This document shows, piece by piece, positions 519 to 62,282 of a DNA stretch of 64,000 nucleotides. Made by a program: the position numbers and the translations under genes. The stretch covers positions 90,024,001 to 90,088,000 of the forward strand of contig OZ024747.1 in assembly GCA_964016885.1 (NCBI GenBank), written 5' to 3'. The DNA is from Eledone cirrhosa. Taxonomy: Eukaryota. The notes beneath the pieces were generated by a model that worked only from the letters and a program-made list of their open reading frames with translations, made no database searches and was not told the origin of the DNA. How positions within the stretch are numbered: the first letter of the stretch is position 1; every line of letters begins with the position of its first letter.

Positions 519-549
<31 letters not shown>

Positions 550-713
550 GTATATATATATTATGTATTTGCAGATAGAGAAGAAAGAAAACAATGTAGT
601 GAGAAAGGGTGATTAGAAGGGAAACATACACACAAACAGAAACATGCACACACATGTACATGTAAATATAAATATAAGTACATATATGTATATGTGTGTG
701 TGTATATATATAC

Positions 714-752
<39 letters not shown>

Positions 753-759
<7 letters not shown>

Positions 760-1609: not shown

Positions 1610-1652
<43 letters not shown>

Positions 1653-1949
1653 CATACACAAACATACATATACACACATACACATATATATATATATAAG
1701 CACTTTAATACATGAATACACTTACATCTAACTATACACATTAAACATATATATATATTTACTTATTTATATACATTTTCACATATATATACATACTTAT
1801 GGACGTTTTTAGACACATTCATTATCGCATATTTGTACCTATTCTCATCAGCATATCTTTTCATTATTAGTATGGTAATTTAAGGTTATTAATATACATA
1901 TATATGTTGAGAAGAGATTGTTTTTATATTTTTCTAACTAGATTAAGGT
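753..1949 (-). repeat. PLE 3' pseudo-LTR / 3'UTR (copy 1)
   Basis: Near-identical to 4349-~5548 and, inverted, to ~6850-7932. It contains an internal CA/TA microsatellite block whose (TA)n length differs between copies. Confidence 0.88.
907..1023 (-). ncRNA. Type I hammerhead ribozyme motif (PLE pLTR copy 1)
   Basis: The minus strand reads ttatt-CTGATGA-(88 nt with atgacagt/actgttat stem)-GAAA-CACGTG-TC-aataa. This gives a 5-bp stem I, a palindromic stem III and a GUC site. Confidence 0.72.
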
Positions 1950-4298: not shown

Positions 4299-4348
4299 TG
4301 CTGTGGTTGCGTTTGCTGTGTGGGTTGCTCGACTTTACAGGAGGTAAA

Positions 4349-5205
4349 TATACAGTATTTTCCGTTGTGTTGTAATATAAATATTACACACAGTAGATTA
4401 TCAGCTCACGTAGAGTTTGCTCGACGGTTCCAGTTGTAGTTCCAAAAGTAATCCGGAGAAAAATAGAAAGATTTGAATGGATACAGTTTAGTTGAAAGGA
4501 ATTTATTGACACGTGTTTCTATAACAGTTACATAACCTAAAACAGCTATCTACAAACTTTTAGTTATGCAGACATTCAATATTTCAATGTTATTATTTAC
4601 TGTCATTTCATCAGAATAATATTACTGAGGACCTATTTGGTTTTTATAGAGAATATTAGGAGGGAGGGGTGAAGTTGTTAGAAGAATAGTTGAAGGAGTG
4701 GTTTTTCGATAGCAGTGAGAATTCTTGGTGGCAGTGAGTAATTAGATTCCCATCTGTTGTTTTGACATTTTTTATAGAATATATTATTGGTTATTTTTCT
4801 AAATCTATAGAAGGATTAGAGATAGTGAAGATATGCGTGGTTGGTTTTGTGTTTGCACTTAATTAACATTCAGACTTAAATTTTTCTTTCAAGTGTACGT
4901 ATCCTTTCACCCACGCATTCACACACAAATATATTTGCACACCTCTACAAAATACATATACACACAATTCACATATTCATACTTACATATACATACACAT
5001 GCATACACATATATATACACACATGTATTCATGTACATACATACGCGCTCATGTGTATACATTTTCATACTCAACTTATCTTTATATACACACGTATAGA
5101 CACACACATATATACATACATACTCTAGTCCATGTGTACACACATTCACATACATACACATCCATATACACATATATACATACACCTATATACATACATA
5201 TATAC

Positions 5206-5256
<51 letters not shown>

Positions 5257-5947
5257 CATACACAAACATACATATACACACATACACATATATATATATA
5301 TATAAGCACTTTAATACATGAATACACTTACATCTAACTATACACATTAAACATATATATATATTTACTTATTTATATACATTTTCACATATATATACAT
5401 ACTTATGGACGTTTTTAGACACATTCATTATCGCATATTTGTACCATTTCTCATCAGCATATCTTTTCATTATTAGTATGGTAATTTAAGGTTATTAATA
5501 TATGTTGAGAAGAGATTGTTTTTATATTTTTCTAACTAGATTAAGGTTTATATAGTTGGGGGATGTCCCTCTTTTATGTAATATTCGGCTTGTAGTGGGA
5601 AAAAAGGGTTTTAGTTCTGTGACGGCAGAATAATGTTCGTTCAATTCTGTTAGTCAGCAGTTTCTTCTTGTGTGTGATTATGTAATAAATCTCAAGATTA
5701 CACAATTTGCAGAAATTTTGGCTCCTGGAAAAGCTTTGGGTTTTAGCTAATTTTTCCCATTTTAGGGTAAACTTTTGATCGCTATCCCTGAGCGTCCAAG
5801 CTTTTTCTGCTAGAGTTGTTACATTTCTTTGTCTCTGGTGTTTTATTGAGTAAGAATGCCTATACAATCGAGATTTAAACGATGTTGCCGTTGATCCCAC
5901 GTAATACCACTCGTTGCCTCCGGATTTAATGGTACACTTATAAATAA
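4349..5947 (-). repeat. 5'-truncated tandem PLE copy (EN C-terminus + pLTR) acting as upstream pseudo-LTR
   Basis: Direct repeat of 753-~2349 (offset ~3596). It lies ~50 nt upstream of the ORF ATG on the minus strand. Confidence 0.9.
4503..4619 (-). ncRNA. Type I hammerhead ribozyme motif (PLE pLTR copy 2)
   Basis: Same sequence as 907-1023. Confidence 0.72.
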
Positions 5948-6936
5948 AACACCCCAAATAAATCCCACATAGGTAGATATAATAACACAAGACCAAACCA
6001 CTCTTACTACCATAGTATGCACACCAGTAAACCAACAAACAAAACTAATAGAAAGCGATGCAAAGAGTACTTATGGTATAACCCCGAATACAATAGCTCC
6101 ATTAGTACAAATTTACCAGTACTCTTCTTTAAAATAATTAAAAGACATTTTCCCACATCACACAAATACCACAAAATCCTAAACCCTACCACTATAAGAC
6201 TGTCATACTCTACAGCGTTAAACCTTGAACAACACATAAAAAAGATCAATACTAGAAGGTTAAACGAAAACACTAAGAACTTAAGTACAAAGAACACAAA
6301 AAAAAACAGTAGACAATACACTACAGAACATAAATAAACCACACCTAAGTTCGTCCGCAATACTACTCCAGAGAAAACCCAACGTACACAACTGTAACTG
6401 CACCTATCCTGACAACTGCCCCCTCGGCAATAACTGCCTGGAAAAAAATATTATTTATAAGTGTACCATTAAATCCGGAGGCAACGAGTGGTATTACGTG
6501 GGATCAACGGCAACATCGTTTAAATCTCGATTGTATAGGCATTCTTACTCAATAAAACACCAGAGCCAAAGAAATGTAACAACTCTAGCAGAAAAAGCTT
6601 GGTCGCTCAGGGATAGCGATCAAAAGTTTACCCTAAAATGGGAAAAATTAGCTAAAACCCAAAGCTTTTCCAGGAGCCAAAATTTCTGCAAATTGTGTAA
6701 TCTTGAGATTTATTACATAATCACACACAAGAAGAAACTGCTGAATAACAGAATTGAACGAACATTATTCTGCCGTCACAGAACTAAAACCCTTTTTTCC
6801 CACTACAAGCCGAATATTACATAAAAGAGGGACATCCCCCAACTATATAAACCTTAATCTAGTTAGAAAAATATAAAAACAATCTCTTCTCAACATATAT
6901 TAATAACCTTAAATTACCATACTAATAATGAAAAGA

Positions 6937-6994
6937 TATGCTGATGAGAATAGGTACAAATATGCGATAATGAATGTGTCTAAAAACGTCCATA
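6937..6994 (+). ncRNA. Degenerate second hammerhead-like motif in the pLTR (also 1798-1855 and 5404-5461 on the minus strand)
   Basis: tatg-CTGATGA-gaa-taggtaca..tgtgtcta-AAAA-C-GTC-cata. Stems I and II can form, but GAAA is replaced by AAAA. Confidence 0.35.
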
Positions 6995-7141
6995 AGTATG
7001 TATATATATGTGAAAATGTATATAAATAAGTAAATATATATATATGTTTAATGTGTATAGTTAGATGTAAGTGTATTCATATATTAAAGTGCTTATATAT
7101 ATATATATATGTGTATGTGTGTATATGTATGTTTGTGTATG

Positions 7142-13499: not shown

Positions 13500-15130
13500 A
13501 AAACATTCTTTAAGAAATCTGATTTGACATTCAGTATCTGACAAAAGTTTCAATGGTGGAATTTTAAGGTCCAAAACCTGATTTTCTACATTCTTCTGTG
13601 CTATTTATATAAATATCTGACCTCTTTCAATGTTCCTTAATTCAGCTCTCTAGTTTAAAAATGTTGCCTCTACATCAAACTGCTCTTTAAATTATTCAGT
13701 GGCACCTTAAAGTTGTTTCAGTCAATCATCTGTAACATTTCCAAATCCAGATTGTCTTAAGTTACACTGGCAACACATGTATGAGTCTTTGCAGTTTCTT
13801 CAAATGACCTCATCTTAGTGAATCTGAAAGAAAATGTTTCTTTGGTTGACTAAATTATGCTTGCTAATTGCTTTTGAACATTCAGAGTATGTTTTCTTGC
13901 AAATTTAAAGATCAGTCATATTATTATTAAGGTTTGGGAATACATAGAAGTATCATTGTCAGCATCTTTTTGAAAACAGTTTTAGTTTTATTTCAAAGGT
14001 ATTTATGTCATCAAACATAACATCATGTATTTTGTCAGATCTGCATAAATTGATATTCCAGTCATTTAAATGTGAAGATAAATTTGTAAGAACAAAACAT
14101 TAATCTACCAATCCACACAACATTAAATAGTACTTGACAAGAATATTTTTCTTTCATCAAAAACACAAATTTCATCCAAATATTCAACAAATCTTTTAAA
14201 GGCAGAGTTACAACCAAGCTATTAAACAACATACTACATAAATACTGATTTCACCTCACTCACTAAATTATGAAACTTTATTTTTATTTTTTCAAACCAT
14301 GCATAGATATACAATTAAATAACTTGGTTTCAATTTATATCACATTTTCAATATTTTTTTAACCCTTTAGCATTTAAACTGACCGTATCTGGCCAGAATT
14401 CTCTCACCTCTTTCTGTTTAAAATGGCTATAACTGGCTGCTCATACTTATGTTAAGGTTTTGTTCTCAAAATAAATAATATCAAAATCTCATAGATTCAA
14501 TATTATGTGAGATAATAATGTGAAATAAAGTGTTTACTGTGAAAATACAATAGCAAATATAGAGTAATGTAAATGTTAAAGGGTAAAGGCCAATTTTGCA
14601 TGCAATACTCCTCATATACAATGCATTAAAAGGCTTCCGATGGATGTCCAATATATTGTGAAATAATTCATAAAACCTGCTTCTCTGTTATCAGTTGTCA
14701 CAGAAACTGTTTTAGTAAAAGATTAATTTGTCAATTAGAGAAGTCATTTATATATTTCAACCTTTGGTATATTCTCAGGTAATGTTACACAGTTAAACGG
14801 GTCTTTATATATGTCTGCAACCCTACAAAATCAAGTAATAAGGGCTAGCCTAGCAGATAGTATCACATCTGTACTCTTATATAAACAACTTAAAAGGAAT
14901 TTACATGAAGCAATATATTTTGTTAGCTTTTCTTATATACTTGTTTTTATCTTTAATATTGTATATTTTACACTTTCTAATCTCTGGCAATTCTCTGCTG
15001 GATAATTTTTCTCTTTTATGGAAAGTCATCAATAATGAAGCACATTCTGGCCAAGATTCCTTAATATACTCTCCATCACAGAATGTTTTTTCATATTTAG
15101 CAATAATTCTTAAATTAATCAGCAATTAAA
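13500..15130 (-). pseudogene. Decayed hAT (Charlie/SPIN/GTF2IRD2-like) transposase
   Basis: Minus-strand fragments occur in the expected order: IAKYEKTFCDGEYIKESW.EC, VSVTTD, HCI..EE.LHA, LKRFVEYLDEICVF, LTNLSSHLNDWNINL, SYMC. It carries many stops and frameshifts and is interrupted by the MITE at 14359-14587. Confidence 0.65.
14359..14587 (+). mobile_element. piggyBac-like MITE family A copy
   Basis: TTAA-CCCTTTAGCATT ... AATGTTAAAGGG-TAAA; contains one satellite monomer. Confidence 0.85.
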
Positions 15131-17023: not shown

Positions 17024-17895
17024 CGTGTAGTTGAAAAAGGGGTAAAGTTCCACATAAATCAAGGATTATAGGTAAAAAGTATAAATAATTACCAACCTTT
17101 GGTCTTCTTTTCAATGTAATATTTGCTCTTAAACATCTGAAATAAGGAGTTCATACAAGTAAAATTGTATGTAGCCTTCTGAGTAGTTTAAGAGTAGTTT
17201 ACTGTAATAAATGTCATATTTGGAGCTGTAATAACTTCATCTACGTTTATCAGTTTTCATATTTGAAAACGTTTTATTCTAAATTAATATATACATATAT
17301 ATATATGTGTGTGTGTGTGTGTGTCGGTGTGTGTGTATTTGTATGTGTTCATGTGTGTGTTTGTATGTGTGTGTGTGTTCATATGTGTGATTGTATGTGT
17401 GTGTTTGTGTTAGTGGTTTTGTATGTCTATGTCTGTAGCAAAGAAAAGCAAAACATTACCACAAAAATATCAACATGTTTTGTACCAGATGAATGTTAAC
17501 AGGATAACTACAAGAAAATGAATTATTATCAATTACACCAGTAATTTCTTCTTTTGTTCATAAACTATACTATATAAGTAAATGAATAGGGAGAAATAGT
17601 GATAATGACTTTCTGAATGTTATATATAAATACTAAACATTGTTTACAGATGTTGCTCTTGTTATTTCTTGTCTATGTCATATCTTGACATATTTTTTGC
17701 TGAAATCATCCAATTTTTGGGGATCTGTGGATATTGTTTGTGAGACAATGTAAAATATTGAAAATAGTATTGAAGCAATTTGTAGAAAATTTCTGACAAT
17801 GCACATATATGTATATATGACTTCTATTACTTCATATTAAATATGAAGATTTTCAGAAGGGCGATTGAGTATGACATTTGTGTATTAGTGCGAAT

Positions 17896-20800
17896 TTAAC
17901 CCTTTAGCATTTAAACCAACTGTATCTGGCCAGAATTCTCTCACCTCTTTCTGTTTAAACTGGCTATGTATATCTGGCCAGAATTCTCTCACATCTTTCT
18001 GTTTAAACTGGCTGTATCTGGCCAGAATTCTCTCACCTCTTTCTGTTTAAACCTGGCTGTATCTGGCCAGAATTCTCTCACCTCTTTCTGTTTAAATCTG
18101 GCTGTATCTGGCCAGAATTCTCTCACATCTTTCTGTTTAAACTGGCTGTATCTCTCCAGAATTCTCTCACCTCTTTCTGTTTAAATCTGGCTGTAGCTGG
18201 CCAGAGTTCTCTCACCTCTTTCTGTTTAAACCAACTGTATCTGGCCAGAATTCTCTCACCTCTTTCTGTTTAAACCAACTGTATCTGGCCAGAATCCTCT
18301 CACCTCTTTCTGTTCAAACTGGCTGTATCTGGCCAGAATTCTCTCACCTCTTTCTGTTTGAACTGGCTGTATCTGGCCAGAATTCTCTCACCTCTTTCTG
18401 TTTAAACCAACTGTATCTGGCCAGAATTCTCTCACCTCTTTCTGTTTAAACCAACTGTATCTGGCCAGAATTCTCTCACCTCTTTCTGTTTAAAGCTGGC
18501 TGTATGTGGCCAGAATTCTCTCACCTCTTTCTATTCAAACTGGCTGTATCTGGCCAGAATTCTCTCACCTCTTTCTGTTTAAACCAACAGTATCTGGCCA
18601 GAATTCTCTCACCTCTTTCTGTTTAAACCAACAGTATCTGGCCAGAATTCTCTCACCTCTTTCTGTTTAAAGCTGGCTGTATCTGGCCAGAATTCTCTCA
18701 CCTCTTTCTATTCAAACTGGCTGTATCTGGCCAGAATTCTCTCACCTCTTTCTGTTTAAACCAACTGTATCTGGCCAGAATTCTCTCACCTCTTTCTGTT
18801 TAAACCAACAGTATCTGGCCAGAATTCTCTCACCTCTTTCTGTTTAAAGCTGGCTGTATGTGGCCAGAATTCTCTCACCTCTTTCTATTTAAACTGGCTG
18901 TATCTGGCCAGAATTCTCTCACCTCTTTCTGTTTAAAGCTGGCTGTATGTGGCCAGAATTCTCTCACCTCTTTCTATTCAAACTGGCTGTATCTGGCCAG
19001 AATTCTCTCACCTCTTTCTGTTTAAACCAACAGTATCTGGCCAGAATTCTCTCACCTCTTTCTGTTTAAACCAACAGTATCTGGCCAGAATTCTCTCACC
19101 TCTTTCTGTTTAAAGCTGGCTGTATCTGGCCAGAATTCTCTCACCTCTTTCTATTCAAACTGGCTGTATCTGGCCAGAATTCTCTCACCTCTTTCTGTTT
19201 AAACCAACTGTATCTGGCCAGAATTCTCTCACCTCTTTCTGTTTAAACCAACAGTATCTGGCCAGAATTCTCTCACCTCTTTCTGTTTAAAGCTGGCTGT
19301 ATGTGGCCAGAATTCTCTCACCTCTTTCTATTTAAACTGGCTGTATCTGGCCAGAATTCTCTCACCTCTTTCTGTTTAAACCTGGCTGTATCTGGCCAGA
19401 ATTCTCTCACCTCTTTCTATTTAAATCTGGCTGTATCTGGCCAGAATTCTCTCACCTCTTTCTGTTTAAACGAACTGTATCTGGCCAGAATTCTCTCACC
19501 TCTTTCTGTTTAAACTGGCTGTATCTGGCCAGAATTCTCTCACCTCTTTCTGTTCAAACTAGCTGTATCTGGCCAGAATTCTCTCACCTCTTTCTGTTTA
19601 AACCAACTGTATCTGGCCAGAATTCTCTCACCTCTTTCTGTTTAAAGCTGGCTGTATGTGGCCAGAATTCTCTCACCTCTTTCTATTCAAACTGGCTGTA
19701 TCTGGCCAGAATTCTCTCACCTCTTTCTGTTTAAACCAACAGTATCTGGCCAGAATTCTCTCACCTCTTTCTATTTAAACTGGCTGTATCTGGCCAGAAT
19801 TTTCTCACCTCTTTCTGTTTAAACCTGGCTGTATCTGGCCAGAATTCTCTCACCTCTTTCTGTTTAAATCTGTCTGTATCTGACCAGAATTCTCTTACCT
19901 CTTTCTGTTTAGACCTGGCTGTATCTGGCCAGAATTCTATCACCTCTTTCTGTTTAAATCTGGCTGTATCTGGCCAGAATTCTCTCACCTCTTTCTGTTT
20001 AAACCAACAGTATCTGGCCAGAATTCTCTCACCTCTTTCTGTTTAAACTGGCTGTATCTGGCCAGAATTCTCTCACCTCTTTCTGTTTAAACCTGGCTGT
20101 ATCTGGCCAGAATTCTCTCACCTCTTTCTGTTTAAACTGGCTGTATCTGGCCAGAATTCTCTCACCTCTTTCTGTTCAAACTGGCTGTATCTGGCCAGAA
20201 TTCTCTCACCTCTTTCTGTTCAAATTGGCTGTATCTGGCCAGAATTCTCTCACCTCTTTCTGTTTAAACCAACTGTATCTGGCCAGAATTCTCCACCTCT
20301 TTCTGTTTAAACCAACTGTATCTGGCCAGAATTCTCCACCTCTTTCTGTTTAAACTGGCTGTATCTGGCCAGAATTCTCTCACCTCTTTCTGTTTAAACT
20401 GGCTGTATCTGGCCAGAATTCTCTCACCTCTTTCTGTTTAAACCAACTGTATCTGGCCAGAATTCTCTCACCTCTTTCTGTTTAAAGCTGGCTGTATGTG
20501 GCCAGAATTCTCTCACCTCTTTCTATTTAAACTGGCTGTATCTGGCCAGAATTCTCTCACCTCTTTCTGTTCAAACTGGCTGTATCTGGCCAGAATTCTC
20601 TCACCTCTTTCTGTTTAAATCTGGCTGTATCTGGCCAGAATTCTCTCACCTCTTTCTGTTTAAATGAACTGTATCTGGCCAGAATTCTCTCACCTCTTTC
20701 TGTTTAAACTGGCTGTATCTGGCCAGAATTCTCTCACCTCTTTCTGTTTAAACCAACTGTATCTGGCCAGAATTCTCTCACCTCTTTCTGTTTAAACCAA

Positions 20801-23800
20801 CTGTATCTGGCCAGAATTCTCTCACCTCTTTCTGTTCAAACTGGCTGTATCTGGCCAGAATTCTCTCACCTCTTTCTGTTTGAACTGGCTGTATCTGGCC
20901 AGAATTCTCTCACCTCTTTCTGTTTAAACCAACTGTATCTGGCCAGAATTCTCTCACCTCTTTCTGTTTAAACCAACTGTATCTGGCCAGAATTCTCTCA
21001 CCTCTTTCTGTTTAAAGCTGGCTGTATGTGGCCAGAATTCTCTCACCTCTTTCTATTCAAACTGGCTGTATCTGGCCAGAATTCTCTCACCTCTTTCTGT
21101 TTAAACCAACAGTATCTGGCCAGAATTCTCTCACCTCTTTCTGTTTAAACCAACAGTATCTGGCCAGAATTCTCTCACCTCTTTCTGTTTAAAGCTGGCT
21201 GTATCTGGCCAGAATTCTCTCACCTCTTTCTATTCAAACTGGCTGTATCTGGCCAGAATTCTCTCACCTCTTTCTATTCAAACTGGCTGTATCTGGCCAG
21301 AATTCTCTCACCTCTTTCTGTTTAAACCAACTGTATCTGGCCAGAATTCTCTCACCTCTTTCTGTTTAAACCAACAGTATCTGGCCAGAATTCTCTCACC
21401 TCTTTCTGTTTAAAGCTGGCTGTATGTGGCCAGAATTCTCTCACCTCTTTCTATTTAAACTGGCTGTATCTGGCCAGAATTCTCTCACCTCTTTCTGTTT
21501 AAACCTGGCTGTATCTGGCCAGAATTCTCTCACCTCTTTCTGTTTAAATCTGGCTGTATCTGGCCAGAATTCTCTCACCTCTTTCTGTTTAAACGAACTG
21601 TATCTGGCCAGAATTCTCTCACCTCTTTCTGTTTAAACTGGCTGTATCTGGCCAGAATTCTCTCACCTCTTTCTGTTCAAACTAGCTGTATCTGGCCAGA
21701 ATTCTCTCACCTCTTTCTGTTTAAACCAACTGTATCTGGCCAGAATTCTCTCACCTCTTTCTGTTTAAACCAACTGTATCTGGCCAGAATTCTCTCACGT
21801 CTTTCTGTTTAAAGCTGGCTGTATGTGGCCAGAATTCTCTCACCTCTTTCTATTCAAACTGGCTGTATCTGGCCAGAATTCTCTCACCTCTTTCTGTTTA
21901 AACCAACAGTATCTGGCCAGTATTCTCTCACCTCTTTCTATTTAAACTGGCTGTATCTGGCCAGAATTTTCTCACCTCTTTCTGTTTAAACCTGGCTGTA
22001 TCTGGCCAGAATTCTCTCACCTCTTTCTGTTTAAATCTGGCTGTATCTGGCCAGAATTCTCTTACCTCTTTCTGTTTAGACCTGGCTGTATCTGGCCAGA
22101 ATTCTATCACCTCTTTCTGTTTAAATCTGGATGTATCTGGCCAGAATTCTCTCACCTCTTTCTGTTTAAACCAACAGTATCTGGCCAGAATTCTCTCACC
22201 TCTTTCTGTTTAAACTGGCTGTATCTGGCCAGAATTCTCTCACCTCTTTCTGTTTAAATCTGGCTGTATCTGGCCAGAATTCTCTCACCTCTTTCTGTTT
22301 AAACTGGCTGTATCTGGCCAGAATTCTCTCACCTCTTTCTGTTCAAACTGGCTGTATCTGGCCAGAATTCTCTCACCTCTTTCTGTTCAAATTGGCTGTA
22401 TCTGGCCAGAATTCTCTCACCTCTTTCTGTTTAAATCTGGCTGTATCTGGCCAGAATTCTCTCACCTCTTTCTGTTTAAACCAACAGTATCTGGCCAGAA
22501 TTCTCCACCTCTTTCTGTTTAAACTGGCTGTATCTGGCCAGAATTCTCTCATCTCTTTCTGTTTAAACTGGCTGTATCTGGCCAGAATTCTCTCACCTCT
22601 TTCTGTTTAAACCAACTGTATCTGGCCAGAATTCTCTCACCTCTTTCTGTTTAAAGCTGGCTGTATGTGGCCAGAATTCTCTCACCTCTTTCTATTTAAA
22701 CTGGCTGTATCTGGCCAGAATTCTCTCACCTCTTTCTGTTCAAACTGGCTGTATCTGGCCAGAATTCTCTCACCTCTTTCTGTTTAAATCTGGCTGTATC
22801 TGGCCAGAATTCTCTCACCTCTTTCTGTTTAAACGAACTGTATCTGGCCAGAATTCTCTCACCTCTTTCTGTTTAAACTGGCTGTATCTGGCCAGAATTC
22901 TCTCACCTCTTTCTGTTTAAACCAACTGTATCTGGCCAGAATTCTCTCACCTCTTTCTGTTTAAACTGGCTGTATCTGGCCAGAATTCTCTCACCTCTTT
23001 CTGTTCAAACTGGCTGTATCTGGCCAGAATTCTCTCACCTCTTTCTGTTCAAATTGGCTGTATCTGGCCAGAATTCTCTCACCTCTTTTTGTTTAAATCT
23101 GGCTGTATCTGGCCAGAATTCTCTCACCTCTTTCTGTTTAAACCAACAGTATCTGGCCAGAATTCTCCACCTCTTTCTGTTTAAACTGGCTGTATCTGGC
23201 CAGAATTCTCTCATCTCTTTCTGTTTAAACTGGCTGTATCTGGCCAGAATTCTCTCACCTCTTTCTGTTTAAACCAACTGTATCTGGCCAGAATTCTCTC
23301 ACCTCTTTCTGTTTAAAGCTGGCTGTATGTGGCCAGAATTCTCTCACCTCTTTCTATTTAAACTGGCTGTATCTGGCCAGAATTCTCTCACCTCTTTCTG
23401 TTCAAACTGGCTGTATCTGGCCAGAATTCTCTCACCTCTTTCTGTTTAAATCTGGCTGTATCTGGCCAGAATTCTCTCACCTCTTTCTGTTTAAACGAAC
23501 TGTATCTGGCCAGAATTCTCTCACCTCTTTCTGTTTAAACTGGCTGTATCTGGCCAGAATTCTCTCACCTCTTTCTGTTTAAACCAACTGTATCTGGCCA
23601 GAATTCTCTCACCTCTTTCTGTTTAAACCAACTGTATCTGGCCAGAATTCTCTCACTTCTGTCTGTTTGAAGCTGGCTGTATGTGGCCAGAATTCTCTCA
23701 CCTCTTTCTATTCAAACTGGCTGTATCTGGCCAGAATTCTCTCACCTCTTTCTGTTTAAACCAACAGTATCTGGCCAGAATTCTCTCACCTCTTTCTATT

Positions 23801-26800
23801 TAAACTGGCTGTATCTGGCCAGAATTTTCTCACCTCTTTCTGTTTAAACCTGGCTGTATCTGGCCAGAATTCTCTCACCTCTTTCTGTTTAAATCTGGCT
23901 GTATCTGGCCAGAATTCTCTCCCCTCTTTCTGTTTAAACGAACTGTATCTGGCCAGAATTCTCTGACCTCTTTCTGTTTAAATCTGGCTGTATCTGGCCA
24001 GAATTCTCTCACCTCTTTCTGTTTAAACTGGCTGTATCTGGCCAGAATTCTCTCACCTCTTTTTGTTTAAACTGGCTGTATCTGGCCAGAATTCTCTCAC
24101 CTCTTTCTGTTTAAACCTGGCTGTATCTGGCCAGGATTCTCTCACCTCTTTCTGTTTAAATCTGGCTGTATCTGGCCAGAATTCTCTCACCTCTTTCTGT
24201 TTAAACTGGCTGTATCTGGCCAGAATTCTCTCACCTCTTTCTGTTCAAACTGGCTGTATCTGGCCAGAATTCTCTCACCTCTTTCTGTTTAAACCAACTG
24301 TATCTGGCCAGAATTCTCCACCTCTTTCTGTTTAAACTGGCTGTATCTGGCCAGAATTCTCTCACCTCTTTCTGTTTAAACTGGCTGTATCTGGCCAGAA
24401 TTCTCTCACCTCTTTCTGTTTAAACCTGGCTGTATCTGGCCAGAATTCTCTTACCTCTTTCTGTTTAAACCTGGCTGTATCTGGCCAGAATTCTCTCACC
24501 TCTTTCTGTTTAAACCTGGCTGTATCTGGCCAGAATTCTCTTACCTCTTTCTGTTTAATCCAACTGTATCCGTGGCCAGAATTCTCCACCTTTTTCTGTT
24601 TAAACTGGCTGTATCTAGCCAGAATTCTCTCACCTCTTTCTGTTTAAACTAGCTGTATCTGGCCAGAGTTCTCTCACCTCTTTCTGTTTAAACCTGGCTG
24701 TATCTGGCCAGAATTCTCTCACCTCTTTCTGTTCAAACTGGCTGTATCTGGCCAGAATTCTCTCACCTCTTTCTGTTTAAACCAACTGTATCTGGCCAGA
24801 ATTCTCTCACCTCTTTCTGTTCAAATTGGCTGTATCTGGCCAGAATCTCTCACTTCTTTCTATTTAAACCAACTGTATCTGGCCAGAATTTTCTCCACCT
24901 CTTTCTGTTCAAATTGGCTGTATCTGGCCAGAATCTCTCACCTCTTTCTATTTAAACCAACTGTATCTGGCCAGAATTTTCTCCACCTCTTTCTGTTTAA
25001 ACTGGCTGTATCTGGCCAGAATTCTCTCACCTCTTTCTGTTTAAACTGGCTGTATCTGGCCAGAATTCTCTCACCTCTTTCTGTTTAAACCTGGCTGTAT
25101 CTGGCCAGAATTCTCTTACCTCTTTCTGTTTAATCCAACTGTATCTGTGGCCAGAATTCTCCACCTTTTTCTGTTTAAACTGGCTGTATCTGGCCAGAAT
25201 TCTCTCACCTCTTTCTGTTTAAACCAGCTGTATCTGGCCAGAATTCTCTCACCTCTTTCTGTTTAAACCTGGCTGTATCTGGCCAGAATTCTCTCACATC
25301 TTTCTGTTTAAACTGGCTGTATCTGGCCAGAATTCTCTCACCTCTTTCTGTTTAAACCAACTGTATCTGGCCAGAATTCTCTCACCTCTTTCTGTTTAAA
25401 CTGGCTGTATCTGGCCAGAATTCTCTCACCTCTTTCTGTTCAAACTGGCTGTATCTGGCCAGAATTCTCTCACCTCTTTCTGTTTAAACCTGGCTGTATC
25501 TGGCCAGAATTCTCTTACCTCTTTCTGTTTAAACCAACTGTATCTGGCCAGAATTCTCTCACCTTTTTCTGTTTAAACTGGCTGTATCTGGCCAGAATTC
25601 TCTCACCTCTTTCTGTTCAAATTGGCTGTATCTGGCCAGAATCTCTCACCTCTTTCTATTTAAACCAACTGTATCTGGCCAGAATTTTCTCCACCTCTTT
25701 TTGTTTAAACTGGCTGTATCTGGCCAGAATTCTTTACCTCTTTCTGTTTAAACTGGCTGTATCTGGCCAGAATTCTCTCACATCTTTCTGTTCAAACTGG
25801 CTGTATCTGGCCAGAATTCTCTCACCTCTTTCTGTTTAAACCAACTGTATCTGGCCAGAATTCTCTCACATCTTTCTGTTTAAACTGGCTGTATCTGGCC
25901 AGAATTCTCTCACCTCTTTCTGTTCAAACTGGCTGTATCTGGCCAGAATTCTCTCACCTCTTTCTGTTTAAACCAGCTGTATCTGGCCAGAATTCTCTCA
26001 CATCTTTCTGTTCAAACTGGCTGTATCTGGCCAGAATTCTATCACCTCTTTCTGTTTAAACCAACTGTATCTGGCCAGAATTCTCTCACATATTTCTGTT
26101 TAAACTGGCTGTATCTGGCCAGAATTCTCTCACCTCTTTCTGTTTAAACTGGCTGTATCTGGCCAGAATTCTCTCACCTCTTTCTGTTTAAACCAACTGT
26201 ATCTGGCCAGAATTCTCTCACCTCTTTCTGTTTAAACCAACTGTATCTGGCCAGAATTCTCTCACTTCTGTCTGTTTGAAGCTGGCTGTATGTGGCCAGA
26301 ATTCTCTCACCTCTTTCTATTCAAACTGGCTGTATCTGGCCAGAATTCTCTCACCTCTTTCTGTTTAAACCAACAGTATCTGGCCAGAATTCTCTCACCT
26401 CTTTCTATTTAAACTGGCTGTATCTGGCCAGAATTTTCTCACCTCTTTCTGTTTAAACCTGGCTGTATCTGGCCAGAATTCTCTCACCTCTTTCTGTTTA
26501 AATCTGGCTGTATCTGGCCAGAATTCTCTCCCCTCTTTCTGTTTAAACGAACTGTATCTGGCCAGAATTCTCTGACCTCTTTCTGTTTAAATCTGGCTGT
26601 ATCTGGCCAGAATTCTCTCACCTCTTTCTGTTTAAACTGGCTGTATCTGGCCAGAATTCTCTCACCTCTTTCTGTTCAAACTGGCTGTATCTGGCCAGAA
26701 TTCTCTCACCTCTTTCTGTTTAAACCAACTGTATCTGGCCAGAATTCTCCACCTCTTTCTGTTTAAACTGGCTGTATCTGGCCAGAATTCTCTCACCTCT

Positions 26801-29800
26801 TTCTGTTTAAACTGGCTGTATCTGGCCAGAATTCTCTCACCTCTTTCTGTTTAAACCTGGCTGTATCTGGCCAGAATTCTCTTACCTCTTTCTGTTTAAA
26901 CCTGGCTGTATCTGGCCAGAATTCTCTCACCTCTTTCTGTTTAAACCTGGCTGTATCTGGCCAGAATTCTCTTACCTCTTTCTGTTTAATCCAACTGTAT
27001 CCGTGGCCAGAATTCTCCACCTTTTTCTGTTTAAACTGGCTGTATCTAGCCAGAATTCTCTCACCTCTTTCTGTTTAAACTAGCTGTATCTGGCCAGAGT
27101 TCTCTCACCTCTTTCTGTTTAAACCTGGCTGTATCTGGCCAGAATTCTCTCACCTCTTTCTGTTCAAACTGGCTGTATCTGGCCAGAATTCTCTCACCTC
27201 TTTCTGTTTAAACCAACTGTATCTGGCCAGAATTCTCTCACCTCTTTCTGTTCAAATTGGCTGTATCTGGCCAGAATCTCTCACTTCTTTCTATTTAAAC
27301 CAACTGTATCTGGCCAGAATTTTCTCCACCTCTTTCTGTTCAAATTGGCTGTATCTGGCCAGAATCTCTCACCTCTTTCTATTTAAACCAACTGTATCTG
27401 GCCAGAATTTTCTCCACCTCTTTCTGTTTAAACTGGCTGTATCTGGCCAGAATTCTCTCACCTCTTTCTGTTTAAACTGGCTGTATCTGGCCAGAATTCT
27501 CTCACCTCTTTCTGTTTAAACCTGGCTGTATCTGGCCAGAATTCTCTTACCTCTTTCTGTTTAATCCAACTGTATCTGTGGCCAGAATTCTCCACCTTTT
27601 TCTGTTTAAACTGGCTGTATCTGGCCAGAATTCTCTCACCTCTTTCTGTTTAAACCAGCTGTATCTGGCCAGAATTCTCTCACCTCTTTCTGTTTAAACC
27701 TGGCTGTATCTGGCCAGAATTCTCTCACATCTTTCTGTTTAAACTGGCTGTATCTGGCCAGAATTCTCTCACCTCTTTCTGTTTAAACCAACTGTATCTG
27801 GCCAGAATTCTCTCACCTCTTTCTGTTTAAACTGGCTGTATCTGGCCAGAATTCTCTCACCTCTTTCTGTTCAAACTGGCTGTATCTGGCCAGAATTCTC
27901 TCACCTCTTTCTGTTTAAACCTGGCTGTATCTGGCCAGAATTCTCTTACCTCTTTCTGTTTAAACCAACTGTATCTGGCCAGAATTCTCTTACCTTTTTC
28001 TGTTTAAACTGGCTGTATCTGGCCAGAATTCTCTCACCTCTTTCTGTTCAAATTGGCTGTATCTGGCCAGAATCTCTCACCTCTTTCTATTTAAACCAAC
28101 TGTATCTGGCCAGAATTTTCTCCACCTCTTTTTGTTTAAACTGGCTGTATCTGGCCAGAATTCTTTACCTCTTTCTGTTTAAACTGGCTGTATCTGGCCA
28201 GAATTCTCTCACATCTTTCTGTTCAAACTGGCTGTATCTGGCCAGAATTCTCTCACCTCTTTCTGTTTAAACCAACTGTATCTGGCCAGAATTCTCTCAC
28301 ATCTTTCTGTTTAAACTGGCTGTATCTGGCCAGAATTCTCTCACCTCTTTCTGTTCAAACTGGCTGTATCTGGCCAGAATTCTCTCACCTCTTTCTGTTT
28401 AAACCAGCTGTATCTGGCCAGAATTCTCTCACATCTTTCTGTTCAAACTGGCTGTATCTGGCCAGAATTCTATCACCTCTTTCTGTTTAAACCAACTGTA
28501 TCTGGCCAGAATTCTCTCACATATTTCTGTTTAAACTGGCTGTATCTGGCCAGAATTCTCTCACCTCTTTCTGTTTAAACTGGCTGTATCTGGCCAGAAT
28601 TCTCTCACCTCTTTCTGTTTAAACCAACTGTATCTGGCCAGAATTCTCTCACCTCTTTCTGTTTAAACCAACTGTATCTGGCCAGAATTCTCTCACTTCT
28701 GTCTGTTTGAAGCTGGCTGTATGTGGCCAGAATTCTCTCACCTCTTTCTATTCAAACTGGCTGTATCTGGCCAGAATTCTCTCACCTCTTTCTGTTTAAA
28801 CCAACAGTATCTGGCCAGAATTCTCTCACCTCTTTCTATTTAAACTGGCTGTATCTGGCCAGAATTTTCTCACCTCTTTCTGTTTAAACCTGGCTGTATC
28901 TGGCCAGAATTCTCTCACCTCTTTCTGTTTAAATCTGGCTGTATCTGGCCAGAATTCTCTCCCCTCTTTCTGTTTAAACGAACTGTATCTGGCCAGAATT
29001 CTCTGACCTCTTTCTGTTTAAATCTGGCTGTATCTGGCCAGAATTCTCTCACCTCTTTCTGTTTAAACTGGCTGTATCTGGCCAGAATTCTCTCACCTCT
29101 TTTTGTTTAAACTGGCTGTATCTGGCCAGAATTCTCTCACCTCTTTCTGTTTAAACCTGGCTGTATCTGGCCAGGATTCTCTCACCTCTTTCTGTTTAAA
29201 TCTGGCTGTATCTGGCCAGAATTCTCTCACCTCTTTCTGTTTAAACTGGCTGTATCTGGCCAGAATTCTCTCACCTCTTTCTGTTCAAACTGGCTGTATC
29301 TGGCCAGAATTCTCTCACCTCTTTCTGTTTAAACCAACTGTATCTGGCCAGAATTCTCCACCTCTTTCTGTTTAAACTGGCTGTATCTGGCCAGAATTCT
29401 CTCACCTCTTTCTGTTTAAACTGGCTGTATCTGGCCAGAATTCTCTCACCTCTTTCTGTTTAAACCTGGCTGTATCTGGCCAGAATTCTCTTACCTCTTT
29501 CTGTTTAATCCAACTGTATCCGTGGCCAGAATTCTCCACCTTTTTCTGTTTAAACTGGCTGTATCTAGCCAGAATTCTCTCACCTCTTTCTGTTTAAACT
29601 AGCTGTATCTGGCCAGAGTTCTCTCACCTCTTTCTGTTTAAACCTGGCTGTATCTGGCCAGAATTCTCTCACCTCTTTCTGTTCAAACTGGCTGTATCTG
29701 GCCAGAATTCTCTCACCTCTTTCTGTTTAAACCAACTGTATCTGGCCAGAATTCTCTCACCTCTTTCTGTTCAAATTGGCTGTATCTGGCCAGAATCTCT

Positions 29801-31381
29801 CACTTCTTTCTATTTAAACCAACTGTATCTGGCCAGAATTTTCTCCACCTCTTTCTGTTCAAATTGGCTGTATCTGGCCAGAATCTCTCACCTCTTTCTA
29901 TTTAAACCAACTGTATCTGGCCAGAATTTTCTCCACCTCTTTCTGTTTAAACTGGCTGTATCTGGCCAGAATTCTCTCACCTCTTTCTGTTTAAACTGGC
30001 TGTATCTGGCCAGAATTCTCTCACCTCTTTCTGTTTAAACCTGGCTGTATCTGGCCAGAATTCTCTTACCTCTTTCTGTTTAATCCAACTGTATCTGTGG
30101 CCAGAATTCTCCACCTTTTTCTGTTTAAACTGGCTGTATCTGGCCAGAATTCTCTCACCTCTTTCTGTTTAAACCAGCTGTATCTGGCCAGAATTCTCTC
30201 ACCTCTTTCTGTTTAAACCTGGCTGTATCTGGCCAGAATTCTCTCACATCTTTCTGTTTAAACTGGCTGTATCTGGCCAGAATTCTCTCACCTCTTTCTG
30301 TTTAAACCAACTGTATCTGGCCAGAATTCTCTCACCTCTTTCTGTTTAAACTGGCTGTATCTGGCCAGAATTCTCTCACCTCTTTCTGTTCAAACTGGCT
30401 GTATCTGGCCAGAATTCTCTCACCTCTTTCTGTTTAAACCTGGCTGTATCTGGCCAGAATTCTCTTACCTCTTTCTGTTTAAACCAACTGTATCTGGCCA
30501 GAATTCTCTCACCTTTTTCTGTTTAAACTGGCTGTATCTGGCCAGAATTCTCTCACCTCTTTCTGTTCAAATTGGCTGTATCTGGCCAGAATCTCTCACC
30601 TCTTTCTATTTAAACCAACTGTATCTGGCCAGAATTTTCTCCACCTCTTTTTGTTTAAACTGGCTGTATCTGGCCAGAATTCTTTACCTCTTTCTGTTTA
30701 AACTGGCTGTATCTGGCCAGAATTCTCTCACATCTTTCTGTTCAAACTGGCTGTATCTGGCCAGAATTCTCTCACCTCTTTCTGTTTAAACCAACTGTAT
30801 CTGGCCAGAATTCTCTCACATCTTTCTGTTTAAACTGGCTGTATCTGGCCAGAATTCTCTCACCTCTTTCTGTTCAAACTGGCTGTATCTGGCCAGAATT
30901 CTCTCACCTCTTTCTGTTTAAACCAGCTGTATCTGGCCAGAATTCTCTCACATCTTTCTGTTCAAACTGGCTGTATCTGGCCAGAATTCTATCACCTCTT
31001 TCTGTTTAAACCAACTGTATCTGGCCAGAATTCTCTCACATATTTCTGTTTAAACTGGCTGTATCTGGCCAGAATTCTCTCACCTCTTTCTGTTCAAACT
31101 GGCTGTATCTGGCCAGAATTCTCTCACCTCTTTCTGTTTAAACCAACTGTATCTGGCCAGAATTCTCTCACCTCTTTCTGTTCAAACTGGCTGTATCTGG
31201 CCAGAATTCTCTCCCCTCTTTCTGTTCAAACTGGCTTATCCAGCCACTCATACTGATGTTAAAGCATTGTTCTCAAAATAAATAATATGAAAATCTTATA
31301 GATTCAATATTATGTTAGGTAAAGCCCTTCACACGAAAATATAATAGTAAATATAGAGTAATGGAAATGCTAAAGGGTTAA
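17896..31381 (+). mobile_element. piggyBac-like MITE family A copy expanded to ~13.5 kb
   Basis: Left end TTAA-CCCTTTAGCATT at 17896. The normal MITE 3' portion is at 31235-31377 and ends AATGCTAAAGGG-TTAA (31378-31381). Confidence 0.9.
17911..31234 (+). repeat. 44/45-bp tandem satellite array, about 300 monomers, with higher-order repeats
   Basis: Consensus ctgtatctggccagaattctctcacctctttctgtttaaactgg. Rare variants recur at 662-, ~2100- and ~2400-2600-bp spacings. Confidence 0.97.
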
Positions 31382-31904
31382 GCATCTTAGTTCATAAAAT
31401 ATTTGTCTGAACATACAGTGGAAATTGTACTGTGACATAGTGAAGCTCTTTTGTTACCATAATTTTAAAATCCTTTTGAAAATCATCAAGAATTCTAAAG
31501 TATTGGGAATTATTGGTAAACCATTCTTCCAACCTGGGATATTTGAGACTTTGGGATGACCTGAGCTGCTGACAGAGGTTTTTGTCATCATTAGTGGCTT
31601 ACCTTTCTGAAGTGCCCTGTGATTCCCATGAGTGTGCTTGGTTGTTTCAACGCCTTAGCCACACCATCACTAATGCTGCAAGTGTATTGGCTTGCTACAA
31701 AAAGTTTCAAAGACCTTTGCGGTGTGTGACCAATTGACACACTTAGTGTTGAATTGATGACTTTTTAGTTTTTGCTTTGATTATATATTTTTGCGTATCA
31801 TATTTATAAGGTTCCCAGCAATAATTAATTGATTATATCTATGTATTTCTATCTGATATAAATATATTAAATTTAGTTAATTCTTTCAAGAATTTTGAAG
31901 CATT

Positions 31905-32098
31905 TAATAATTGTTTCTACTTTTGGCACAAGACCAGCAATTATCCCAGTACATTACTGGTACTTTATTTTATCCTTATGTAAGGAGGAAAGGCAAAATT
32001 AACCTCAGCAGGATTTGAACTCAGATCATAAAGGGCCGTAACTCTGTGCTGCTAAGCATGGTGTCAGACTCTCTACCGATACTGCCAATCCACCACCC
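31905..32098 (-). mobile_element. tRNA-derived Meta-domain-type SINE
   Basis: Diverged copy of the 59941-60130 family, in tandem with the next copy. Confidence 0.75.
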
Positions 32099-32101
32099 TT
32101 T

Positions 32102-32290
32102 TAATAATTGTTTCTACTTTAGGCACAAGGCCAGCAATTACCCAGTACATTACTGGTACTTTATTTTATCGACCCCGTAAGGATGAAAGGCAAAGTCAAC
32201 CTCGGCGGGATTTGAACTCAGATCGTAAAGGGACATAACTGTGCTGGAAAGCATGGCGTCCGACCCTCTACCGATACTGCCAATCCACCC
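32102..32290 (-). mobile_element. tRNA-derived Meta-domain-type SINE
   Basis: The minus strand has an A-box-like tggcagtatcggtag, B-box gagttcaaatcc and core gcctttcatccttacggggtcgataaa. Confidence 0.8.
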
Positions 32291-33052
32291 TTTTAATAAT
32301 GTAATTAGGTTTTCTATATGTTTAGAGCACAACTTAACAAAAGTTCTTGCATGAAATTGTGATTGAAGGTTTTAGATAATCCAGGGGCTATTTCAAGAGG
32401 TTTGTTACCCCCCAAAAAAGTTTCACTGTAATTTAAGAACCCAATAGCACCATGAGTTGGATGGTAGTTACAAGCACTCTTCACGGCTGTTGACAACACT
32501 CTAATAACGTTCAGAATTTTAACTGTTAATTCTCTCAATGAATGAACCACTTTCATGTCCACTGCTACTGCTACTGCTACTGCTACTGCTACTGCTGTTG
32601 ATACTAATACTAATAATGATCATTTCAGTGTAACCATTCTACCAATCCTTTTATTGAAGAGTTAAAGAAAAATAGCAGGTATAAAACATGTTAATGGTCA
32701 GGAATTTTCAAATAATTTGGCTGTAGATTCTTGGGTCTTCAAAGAGTTAAAGAGCCATATCTCTCCTAAATTTCTGTAATGGAGAGTAGTCTATTTCTGG
32801 AGTTTTATGCTTCACTAAATACATTTCAGGTTAAGTCGTCACCAGTTTCTGGACTGTGATCAAACCATACGTATCAAATAAAATAGATAAAAGAACTAAA
32901 GGAAATAAGTTTTGAAAGTAAAGCTGTAGTATTTAAGCTGAAGTCAGTGAAATGATAATTGCCAAAGTGAATAATTGTGTTCTATAAACTAATGCAGGCT
33001 ACAATGATGTTTAATATAGGTTCAATGTAAAATGGAATGATCTACAGATACT

Positions 33053-35379: not shown

Positions 35380-35596
35380 ATATTATAAGAGCGCAACAGA
35401 GATGGATAACCGGCGCCTAACACCCCTTTAGCAACAGAAAATTGAAAAATAAAAGCTGCAGTTAATATCTTTAGACTGCAAGGAATATATAAAAGCAAGT
35501 TTGAAGTCAATCGGAATAGAAATGTGGATTTGTATAGACTTTACAAAAATGAGGGGAGACACACACACAGACAACAACAGTTTTATATATAGAGAT
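35380..35596 (-). mobile_element. Probable Helitron/Helentron-type non-autonomous fragment
   Basis: Minus-strand start atctctatatataaaactg + (GT)n, similar to the previous element. Confidence 0.35.
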
Positions 35597-36192
35597 TATA
35601 TTTTCATGGTAAAGGATTTATCTTGCATAATTATCTTGCATAATATCGAATCTATGAGATTTTGATATTATTTATTTTGAGAACAATACCTTAACATAAG
35701 TATGCATGGTCAGCTACAGCCAATTTGAACTGAAAGAGGTGAGAGAATTCTGGGCGGATATGGCTGGTTTTACACTTTAACATTTACATTACTCTATATA
35801 TATTATTGTTTTCACAGTAAAAGCTTAACTTCACATAATATTGAATCTATGACATTTTGATAATATTTATTTTGGGAACAATACCTTAATATCAGTATGA
35901 GTGGCCAGCTACAGCCAGTTTGAACAGAAAGAGGTGAGAGAATTCTGGCCAGATAGAACCGGTTTAACCCTTTAGCATTTACATTAGCCTATATATACTA
36001 TTATATTTTTGTAGTAAAGGCTTTACCTCACATAATTATCAGACATAATATCGAATCTATAAAATTTTGATATTATTTATTTTGAGAACAATACCATAAC
36101 ATAAATATGAGGAGCCAGTTACACTCAGTTTGAACAGAAAGAGGTGAGAGAATTCTGGCCAAATATGGCTGGTTTAAATGCTTAAGAGTTAA
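35597..36192 (-). mobile_element. Three adjacent piggyBac-like MITE family A copies (two truncated, one complete at 35964-36192)
   Basis: gaaagaggtgagagaattctgg recurs at ~35732, ~35927 and ~36137; TTAA-CCCTTTAGCATT at 35964. Confidence 0.8.
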
Positions 36193-47101: not shown

Positions 47102-47307
47102 TTAACCCTTTAGCATTAAAACCGGCCATATTCGGCCAGAATTCTCTCACCACCTTCTGTTCAAACCAGCCGCTCATACCAATATTATGATATTGTTCTC
47201 AAAATAAATAATATCAAAATCTCATAGCTTCGATATTATGTAAATTATATTTCCTATTGTATTTTCATGGTAAAGGTTTTAGAGTAATGTAAATGGTGAA
47301 GGGTTAA
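47102..47307 (+). mobile_element. piggyBac-like MITE family A copy
   Basis: TTAACCCTTTAGCATT ... AAGGGTTAA. Confidence 0.85.
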
Positions 47308-48224: not shown

Positions 48225-48422
48225 TTAACCCTTTAGCATTTAAACCAACTGTATCCGGACAGAATTCTCTCACCTCTTTCTGTACAAACCAGCCATAACT
48301 GGCTGCTTATACTGATGTTAAAGTATTGTTCTCAAAATCTCATAGATTTGATATGTGAGGCAAAGCCTTTACCATGAAAATACAATAGTATATATAGAGT
48401 AATGTAAATGCTAAAGGGTTAA
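48225..48422 (+). mobile_element. piggyBac-like MITE family A copy
   Basis: Perfect TTAACCCTTTAGCATTTA / TAAATGCTAAAGGGTTAA ends. Confidence 0.9.
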
Positions 48423-48730: not shown

Positions 48731-48937
48731 TTAACCCTTTAATGTTCAAACCGACCAAAACCGACCAGAATTCTCTACCTCTTTCTGTTGAAACTGGCTG
48801 TAACTGGTATTGTTCTCAAAATAAATACTTTCAAAATCTCATAGATTCGATATTATGTGAGATAATTATGCGAGGTAAAGCATTTACTATGAAAATATAA
48901 TAGTATATATAGAGTAATATGAATGCTAAAGGGTTAA
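48731..48937 (+). mobile_element. piggyBac-like MITE family A copy
   Basis: TTAACCCTTTA ... ATGCTAAAGGGTTAA. Confidence 0.85.
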
Positions 48938-56797: not shown

Positions 56798-57025
56798 TTA
56801 ACCCTTTAGCATTTAAACCGGCCATATCTAGCCAGAACTCGCTCACCTTTCTCTGTTCAAACTGGTTCTAACCGGCCGCTCATACTGATGTTAAAGTATG
56901 TTCTCAAAATAAATAATAACAAACTCTCATAGATTCAATATTCCATGAGATAATTATGTGAGGTAAAGACTTTACTAAGAAAATACAATAGTATATATAG
57001 AGTAATGTAAATGCTAAATGGTTAA
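56798..57025 (+). mobile_element. piggyBac-like MITE family A copy
   Basis: TTAACCCTTTAGCATTTA ... TAAATGCTAAATGGTTAA. Confidence 0.85.
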
Positions 57026-61766: not shown

Positions 61767-62282
61767 CAGAGGTTCGCAAGGTGGGCGCTACTGCACCCCA
61801 GGAGGCGTTGAGAAGTCACTGGGACCTAAGGGGTCGGTGGGGAGGTCAGTAGAGATGATATAATAGTATATTAACCCTTTAGCATTTAAACTGGCCATAA
61901 CTGACCAGAATTCTCTCACTTCTTTCTGTTTAAACTGGCTGCTCATACTGACGTTAAGGTACTGTTCTCAAAATAAATAACATCAAAATCTCATAGATTC
62001 GATATTATGTGAGATAATTATGTAAAATAAAGCCTTTACCACAAAAATACAATAGTATATATAGAGTAATGTAAATGCTTAAATATCAAATGATACATAT
62101 AGTAAATTAAAAAAATATAATATATACTATGTATAAATAAATATTATATATTATTTATTATATATAAATTAACGATTTTATTTATTATATATTATTTACT
62201 ATTTGCATGTAGGCAGATATCTCTGGAAATAGGTGGGGGGGGGGGGTATTAAGTGGCCCCAACACAAGTTTGAGAACCTTTG
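61767..62282. mobile_element. hAT-like MITE with perfect 8-bp TSD and a nested piggyBac-like MITE
   Basis: TSD ccatagcc at 61759-61766 and 62283-62290; imperfect TIR cagaggttcgcaa / ttgagaacctttg. Confidence 0.75.
61871..62082 (+). mobile_element. piggyBac-like MITE family A copy (right TIR eroded)
   Basis: TTAACCCTTTAGCATTTA start; tttaaactggc occurs twice, one monomer apart. Confidence 0.85.

Follow-up and report, generated by a model that had tools for sequence, protein, structure and literature searches.

Satellite arrays of a 44-bp left-end module within a piggyBac-like miniature transposon family of Eledone cirrhosa

Background

That satellite DNA can arise from MITEs (miniature inverted-repeat transposable elements) is already known as a general route, and the initial annotation of the DNA described here was right that such satellites are known in other animals. 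Examples are Xstir, miDNA4, Tetris, and DTC84. Here, we describe a case in the octopus Eledone cirrhosa, located in a 64,000-nucleotide stretch of assembly GCA_964016885.1 (contig OZ024747.1, positions 90,024,001 to 90,088,000 of the forward strand; hereafter the window). At positions 17896..31381 of the window, a MITE carries an array of 301 tandem units, mostly of 44 bp, between its two ends. We are fairly confident that the array began as an old 208-bp copy of a MITE derived from piggyBac. Two left-end repeats in this copy enclose a 44-bp interval, likely a transposase-dimer module, which would have been duplicated in place and then have grown.

In Xenopus, the Xstir satellite is found inside the Xmix (T2-A1) MITE, and MITE, array, and composite forms are described (PMC6004289, PMC12628747). 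Like the octopus element, Xmix is a TTAA-targeting MITE with an internal segment that was amplified into tandem arrays. However, Xmix has AGGRR termini and is assigned to Kolobok, whereas the octopus MITE has CCCTTT termini and an autonomous piggyBac relative. A T2-MITE/Kolobok assignment of the Xmix type was ruled out for the octopus MITE, as its termini start with CCC and not with AGGRR or RR after the TTAA (PMC6004289). The mechanism proposed for Xstir, moreover, needs two neighbouring elements, whereas a single copy with two internal repeats would be enough in the octopus. In miDNA4, a Tc1/mariner MITE of Xenopus tropicalis, short direct repeats enclose either a single monomer or an array of variable size (PMC12628747, PMC9659126). 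Its monomer is thought to be captured, whereas the octopus monomer is the transposon's own left-end module, and octopus arrays of up to 308 kb keep both element ends, while those of miDNA4 lose them. Tetris (Drosophila virilis) and DTC84 (Donax trunculus) are further examples of tandem repeats in DNA transposons that feed satellites, but these are Foldback and Pearl-like elements rather than piggyBac, and DTC84 has up to five repeats.

[quoted passage not shown] Two modules are optimal, and removal of the third one boosts activity 6- to 8.7-fold (PMC11707139). The octopus elements share with piggyBat the period of 44 bp, the motif positions (bp 11 and 55), the asymmetry of the ends, and a related transposase with the zinc-finger pattern (PMC11707139, PMC8086355). 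The active bat element has three modules and other motif sequences, whereas there are two modules in the octopus elements and as many as 7,002 in the dead MITE; furthermore, binding was measured for piggyBat (PMC11707139), whereas for the octopus unit it would follow by analogy.

In the literature searched (Repbase, Dfam, and most subscription papers lay outside its scope), neither a piggyBac-derived satellite nor an octopus MITE satellite was found, and the word 'piggyBac' is absent from the two reviews searched (PMC12628747, PMC9659126). The accessible part of a paper on Octopus vulgaris repeats gives recently active piggyBac families and does not discuss satellites; its supplements or repeat library may hold the MITE family. 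As far as this literature goes, three aspects are new: the piggyBac origin together with an autonomous relative, the correspondence of the monomer to a left-end module, and the many expansions of up to 308 kb in which both ends are kept.

Structure of the expanded element

According to the initial annotation, the array lies between an intact TTAA-CCCTTTAGCATT left end and a normal MITE 3' end, and this is indeed the arrangement over 17896-31381, with no interruption among the 301 units. All parts are in forward orientation. The left TTAA target-site copy (17896..17899) is directly followed by CCCTTTAGCATT (17900-17911) within a 13-bp terminal inverted repeat (TIR; 17900..17912) that is identical to the right end. 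The first 22-bp subterminal direct repeat (element bp 11-32) occupies 17910..17931 and opens the array (17910..31224), whose units of 43-48 bp (mode 44) each correspond to the interval between the two left-end repeats. Tandem Repeats Finder (TRF) reports 17920-31240 with period 44, 301.2 copies, and 91% matches, and our parse gave 301 cores, 62 distinct monomers, and 300 of 300 intervals within 43-48 bp. The second subterminal repeat, which has a 1-bp deletion, terminates the array (31225..31245). It is followed by the ordinary MITE 3' body (31246..31364), whose closest match elsewhere in the genome has 92% identity, by the right TIR (31365..31377), which includes AATGCTAAAGGG (31366-31377), and by the right TTAA copy (31378..31381). 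The ~150 bp that lie 3' of the array are thus a normal MITE segment ending in AATGCTAAAGGG-TTAA (AAAGGG-TTAA) at 31381. The two ends agree over 13 bases with a mismatch at base 14, a position at which the ends do match in the family consensus (14-bp TIR). Excluding the TTAAs, the expanded element measures 13,478 bp, and the array is ~3.9 Mb away from a contig end. EcoRI and MscI had been predicted to cut once per unit; checked in the sequence, their sites are present in 270 and 296 of the 301 units, respectively.

Three higher-order blocks are found within the array, at 23650..26258 (2,609 bp), 26259..28689 (2,431 bp), and 28690..31200 (about 2,511 bp). Block 1 differs from block 2 by 1 mismatch in 2,431 aligned bp and from block 3 by 5 in 2,511; overall, the blocks are 1-10 mismatches apart and additionally differ by whole units. 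Exact runs within the array repeat at lags of 443, 662, 2,123, 2,431, 2,519, and 2,609 bp, and the array contains nested duplications with sizes of 443 bp, 662 bp, and about 2,500 bp. Because these blocks and long-lag runs are nearly identical, a recent duplication of large blocks, as from unequal exchange, seems probable. The monomer types of the array derive from both its first and its last repeat, and CCAACTG, a private variant of the first repeat, reappears in each fifth of the array.

The MITE family and its autonomous relative

The family consensus, built from 32 single-unit copies, is 208 bp long excluding the TTAAs. The inflation of a ~220-bp MITE by about 60-fold that had been proposed initially holds, with the values corrected to 208 bp and about 65-fold. 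The family is short, non-coding, TIR-bounded, and present in high copy number, and TTAA flanks both sides of the expanded copy and of most single copies. The exact 21-base left end occurs at least 16,351 times in the 3.0-Gb assembly and the exact 24-base right end 10,681 times, with zero matches for either reversed control. Since the exact left end is present in only 21 of 44 copies found by other means (a non-random sample), a rough estimate suggests a family of >30,000 copies. Among the first 70 listed left ends, 39 full-length copies have a mean identity of 90% to the consensus (95% at best); the MITE copies are old. A young subfamily was sought among the 147 copies that retain three CpGs in the first repeat and was rejected: 23 full-length copies from the first 30 showed a mean of 91% and a best pair of 94.4%, no younger than the rest.

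The first 70 left-anchored copies comprise 62 with one core, one with 16, and seven with none by the threshold used; the latter are two single-unit copies with indels, one with a clean 44-bp deletion, and four that are otherwise broken. Expanded copies made up 1 of 70 left-anchored, 0 of 30 right-anchored, and 0 of 30 CpG-intact copies (the samples overlap partly), or roughly 1 in 100 MITE copies.

Nine single-unit copies are present in the 64-kb window, in agreement with the initial count of about nine. Six are on the forward strand, at 14359..14587 (altered right TTAA), 47102..47307, 48225..48422 (both ends intact), 48731..48937 (first repeat intermediate between the MITE and the autonomous element), 56798..57025, and 61871..62082 (right end damaged, second repeat shortened by a 10-bp deletion). 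The other three form a head-to-tail group of near-complete units on the reverse strand (35584..36192, period about 195-210 bp), which is a different tandem type. Further tandem forms of the MITE, seen there and at loci L090, L108, L110, L114, and L116, are near-whole-element units with common termini as well as repeats of 60-70-bp stretches from the 3' body.

A search of the genome with the PF13843 profile gave 125 matches, of which 20 were fetched, and 15 of these 20 are full-length copies of one TTAA-bounded element of 2.52-2.58 kb. An intact autonomous copy of 2,567 bp (L124:973-3547; C2:289,044,825 onward) has TTAA on both sides. The element has moved recently, because two copies on different chromosomes and with different flanks are identical over 2,577 bp. 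Across chromosomes, the autonomous copies (L120-L128 and L130) are 99.6-100% identical, and the element is not obviously described before. Its exact left end was found 103 times, in many cases at a 1.47-kb deletion derivative. The 558-aa transposase combines a DDE_Tnp_1_7 core with a zinc-finger domain. It has the catalytic motif segments of the D237, D316, and D412 regions and a His followed by seven Cys/His, which is the pattern described for piggyBat (PMC8086355). The closest solved structure is likewise piggyBat (E 5e-57 versus 1.5e-39 for piggyBac).

The MITE consensus aligns with the autonomous element at 68% identity over nt 1-175 of the left end and at 21 of 22 bases of the right end; the non-terminal alignment scores 63, whereas none of 500 shuffles exceeded 27. 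In older copies of the autonomous family, the match to the MITE is exact over at least its first 19 bases. From these similarities, the MITE would be an internal-deletion derivative of a relative of the autonomous element. TIRs of the piggyBac superfamily are described as 12-19 bp long, starting with C[C/A/T][C/A/T][T/G/A], and the TTAA, the CCCTTT termini, and the direct repeats near the TIR fit this description (PMC5381638). The MITE family thus shows the TTAA duplication, the TIR type, and ends in common with an element that encodes a DDD/cysteine-rich transposase. With an autonomous partner of nearly equal ends, the piggyBac origin suggested by the initial annotation is borne out.

The window also contains, at 49586, 52646-52944, and 53408, copies of a second piggyBac-like MITE family, whose ends are of the CCCTTTTGATACC type and which matches a second autonomous family (L132/L134/L136). 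TRF detected no 44-bp arrays derived from this sister family in the loci examined, a small, non-random sample. At C25:605,362-626,745, three identical piggyBac fragments spaced by 10.39 kb likely constitute a tandem segmental repeat.

Identity of the 44-bp unit

In the MITE left end, a 22-bp direct repeat with a lag of 44 starts at bp 11 and again at bp 55, with 18 of 22 bases identical in the consensus. The left end of the autonomous element has its 22-bp repeat from the same two positions and at the same lag (21/22), and in the second piggyBac family, one of three copies examined shows a repeat with equal place and lag (17/20). The initial annotation correctly noticed that a direct repeat bounds the monomer; its exact 11-bp pair in the copy at 61871 turned out to be a side effect of the 10-bp deletion, and the real seed is the 22-bp imperfect repeat. 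When CpGs are restored, the MITE left end contains imperfect palindromes at bp 19-32 (12/14) and 63-76 (10/14), which is where those of piggyBat lie (its third one is at 107-120; PMC11707139).

Two aspects escaped the initial annotation: the unit is a structural left-end module, and the locus is one of many and far from the largest. Judging from the alignments, the unit is the left-end module of the transposon, and its position and period relative to piggyBat make it likely that this module is a transposase-dimer binding site.

Other arrays in the genome

A 401-bp piece of the array served as query for related arrays; 39 of 3,157 candidates were scored, and the places listed yielded 29 other arrays. 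A left end was accepted with at most 3 mismatches in 16 bases just before the first core, and a 3' segment with a score of at least 77. Among the 29 arrays from the matches listed, the left end is present in 26 and the 3' segment in 22; both are found together in 19, no array lacks both, and all but one (28/29) span 10-115 units. The tabulation of units per copy that was proposed initially hence revealed many arrays, most with both ends (19/29), though it located only part of the junctions. As the located arrays account for 1,313 of 3,290 strict junction matches, more arrays exist beyond them.

The array at C2:414,958,882-415,267,273 was read whole and comprises 7,002 cores over 308 kb at intervals of only 43-45 bp. 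Its left end, right end, and 3' segment each occur once, with no internal occurrence, and it is located ~1 Mb from the contig end amid a patchwork of other large satellites. An additional array on C1, found via a junction motif, has 574 cores. These two arrays, the largest seen, both keep both MITE ends. At the other extreme, a three-unit MITE copy is found near the window.

An array of 90 units (L085:7860-8015; C24:2,779,460-2,783,434) starts 46 bases past the splice donor of a Rap_GAP exon and is hence intronic. A putative 27-aa exon that adjoins the 308-kb array gave no Pfam match. The genome also holds many unrelated tandem arrays of 40-60 bp, and a 58-bp satellite (L162:3227-10000; C2:415,291,200 onward) has in its unit the TTAA and left terminus of the sister piggyBac-like MITE family, making it a second satellite derived from piggyBac ends but of another build.

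Proposed growth in place and competing explanations

In the mechanism that we propose, the two 22-bp left-end repeats misalign, whereby the 44-bp interval would be duplicated and a chimeric junction created. This first step may have taken place by slippage or repair templating, after the insertion of the MITE and at each locus separately, whereas later growth would have proceeded by unequal exchange of ever larger blocks rather than by slippage. The role of the internal direct repeat as seed, already put forward in the initial annotation, is supported by the repeat positions, the junction types, and the deletion and intermediate products.

Arrays were compared for 26 of 31 loci; L044, L048, L036, and L047 were omitted as suspected duplicates (L047 was afterwards found not to be a long duplicate) and L032 because it was out of register. 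Two fixed differences between the repeats mark the switch point of the junction, and the majority junction type is CT in 13 arrays, TT in 9, and one with A at the second site in 4, although some TT types may come from a private change in the second repeat. In 20 of the 26 arrays, the monomers are nearer to their own first repeat than to most others' (Wilcoxon p 0.003), and in all 26, the within-array distance is smaller than the between-array distance (3.6 versus 6.4 differences per 44). Among 21 arrays, the 3' segments resemble each other no more (mean identity 81%, maximum 92%) than single copies do (85% and 96%). On a tree with 32 single copies, these segments are dispersed, requiring 14 label changes against a mean of 16.7 for shuffled labels. 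The own-copy variants, the differing junction types, and the diverged 3' ends favour separate expansions in place, and the expansions at dozens of other sites are most likely independent.

Changes in unit number are also seen between duplicated loci with flanks of 96-100% identity, namely 14 versus 24 units in one pair (flanks 99.8-100% identical) and 14, 16, and 25 units in another set. The reciprocal product, a clean one-unit deletion, was found in 1 of the 70 left-anchored copies and in one copy of the autonomous family. Overall, the arrays have the traits of a satellite: an internal MITE segment that is single in dispersed copies is repeated head-to-tail, evolves in concert, and forms higher-order repeats.

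Several observations weigh against expansion in place or against parts of the reconstruction. Array length and the linkage of the ends are known from the assembly alone. The monomers of 6 of the 26 arrays are not nearer to their own first repeat. Resolution of the 3'-segment tree is low, since only 3 of 50 branches are starred, these force only 2 changes, and 47 of 500 shuffles are as low; taken alone, the tree is compatible with a single origin for some arrays. Regarding the module, the zinc finger by itself matches that of piggyBat weakly (i-E 0.054), the active element is a relative at 68% rather than the direct parent, and at bp 19-32, it has the direct repeat without a palindrome, its palindrome being at bp 29-42.

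The tree is also the point at which a different history could enter, since it does not separate the array origins. During the active life of the family, a multi-unit copy might have formed on one or a few occasions, transposed as a whole, and seeded the arrays, in which case the 13.5-kb unit could still be movable, as the initial annotation had supposed. Both ends and TTAAs are intact, the genome encodes an intact transposase for nearly equal termini, the right ends of the expanded copy and the active element agree at 16 of 18 bases, and in several arrays, the two CpG-decay forms of a site occur together, which fits an early first duplication. Yet none of the 210 pairs of array 3' segments from different sites is near-identical, no exact 100-bp stretch is common to the 17896..31381 array and any of 30 others, and three insertion or substitution variants of this array are present in 0 of those 30. 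Copies with 2-15 units were absent among the 70 left-anchored, 30 right-anchored, and 30 CpG-intact ones, and no young MITE copy was encountered among the copies sampled (at best 95% to the consensus among 39, and 94.4% for the best pair among 23). Moreover, only 21 of 32 bases in the left-end motifs agree with those of the active element, and a third module lowers the activity of piggyBat 6- to 8.7-fold (PMC11707139). We consider this history very unlikely, and the claim of a 13.5-kb unit that is mobile today was not supported: the expanded copy would be immobile, and its present-day mobility is very doubtful.

Capture of a pre-existing 44-bp satellite by the MITE, with TIR-less arrays as the ancestral state, has been proposed for Xenopus miDNA4 (PMC12628747). 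In Eledone, 1,977 of the 3,290 strict junction matches fall outside the located arrays, a figure that, with 39 of 3,157 candidates scored, also counts against expansion in place. However, the unit corresponds by homology to the left-end module in the autonomous piggyBac, where it is single between two repeats. None of the 29 fetched arrays is without both ends and the two largest arrays keep both, which supports growth of the satellite inside the MITE, as the initial annotation had it; we regard capture as extremely unlikely. An assembly artefact, by which MITE ends of different loci were misjoined or the length was inflated, is scarcely more credible. The near-identity of the 2.4-2.6-kb blocks could be taken to point that way, and even the run with the right flank yielded no contig for the left flank (possibly a filter effect). 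Of 12 runs listed for the right flank, four gave contigs over 31340-32500 that were dominated by a common repeat, and four runs gave no cover of 17430-17905; neither outcome bears on the site in other individuals or species. On the other hand, the three private variants are distributed along the array, one being present in each of its fifths, the first and last repeats are both a source of monomer types, many arrays of 0.5-1.5 kb have an equal layout, and the three blocks differ by whole units besides point changes. A short-read contig, probably of the same source as the assembly, equals 31355-31752 without a difference. The array length may be off by one or two blocks.

Expansion in place of the left-end module is hence the reading that we retain, and the array is most likely a neutral by-product, because the genome offers tens of thousands of 44-bp seeds and is rich in 40-60-bp repeats. 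A functional view is conceivable though unlikely: with a piggyBat-type dimer-binding module as monomer, duplication would amount to a self-switch-off, and the arrays would be, or would have been, transposase sinks that damp the family, the satellite being born as a decoy.

Other content of the window

A Pfam scan of 95 of the 263 candidate open frames in the window returned two matches, both under the curated cut-offs. A single-exon gene at 51878-52564 on the reverse strand encodes a 229-aa protein of unknown function that is conserved in molluscs and shows 94% identity to a protein of Octopus vulgaris and 90% to one of Argonauta; two distant homologues contain PF15435. Furthermore, a 794-aa open frame (1953-4334 on the reverse strand, and 5577-6821) has partial copies nearby in both orientations. 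It gave no Pfam match at 0.01, and we take it to resemble a Penelope-type retroelement, with reverse transcriptase motifs followed by GIY-YIG motifs.

Significance

The expansion of the arrays need not have a function, given the other 40-60-bp arrays of the genome. The Eledone arrays connect the monomer of a satellite with a defined portion of a transposon. They provide dozens of replicate expansions, from 3 to 7,002 units, that share one dated starting sequence and retain their bracketing ends, and thereby a natural series for studying how arrays start, how they are homogenised, and how higher-order structure arises. The intact and recently copied piggyBac element makes both binding and mobility directly testable. 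In piggyBat, the origin of the inhibitory third 44-bp site by duplication was left open (PMC11707139, accessible part of the Discussion). As an octopus module of equal size has been duplicated and deleted repeatedly, the arrays described here bear on the question of how this third site came about.

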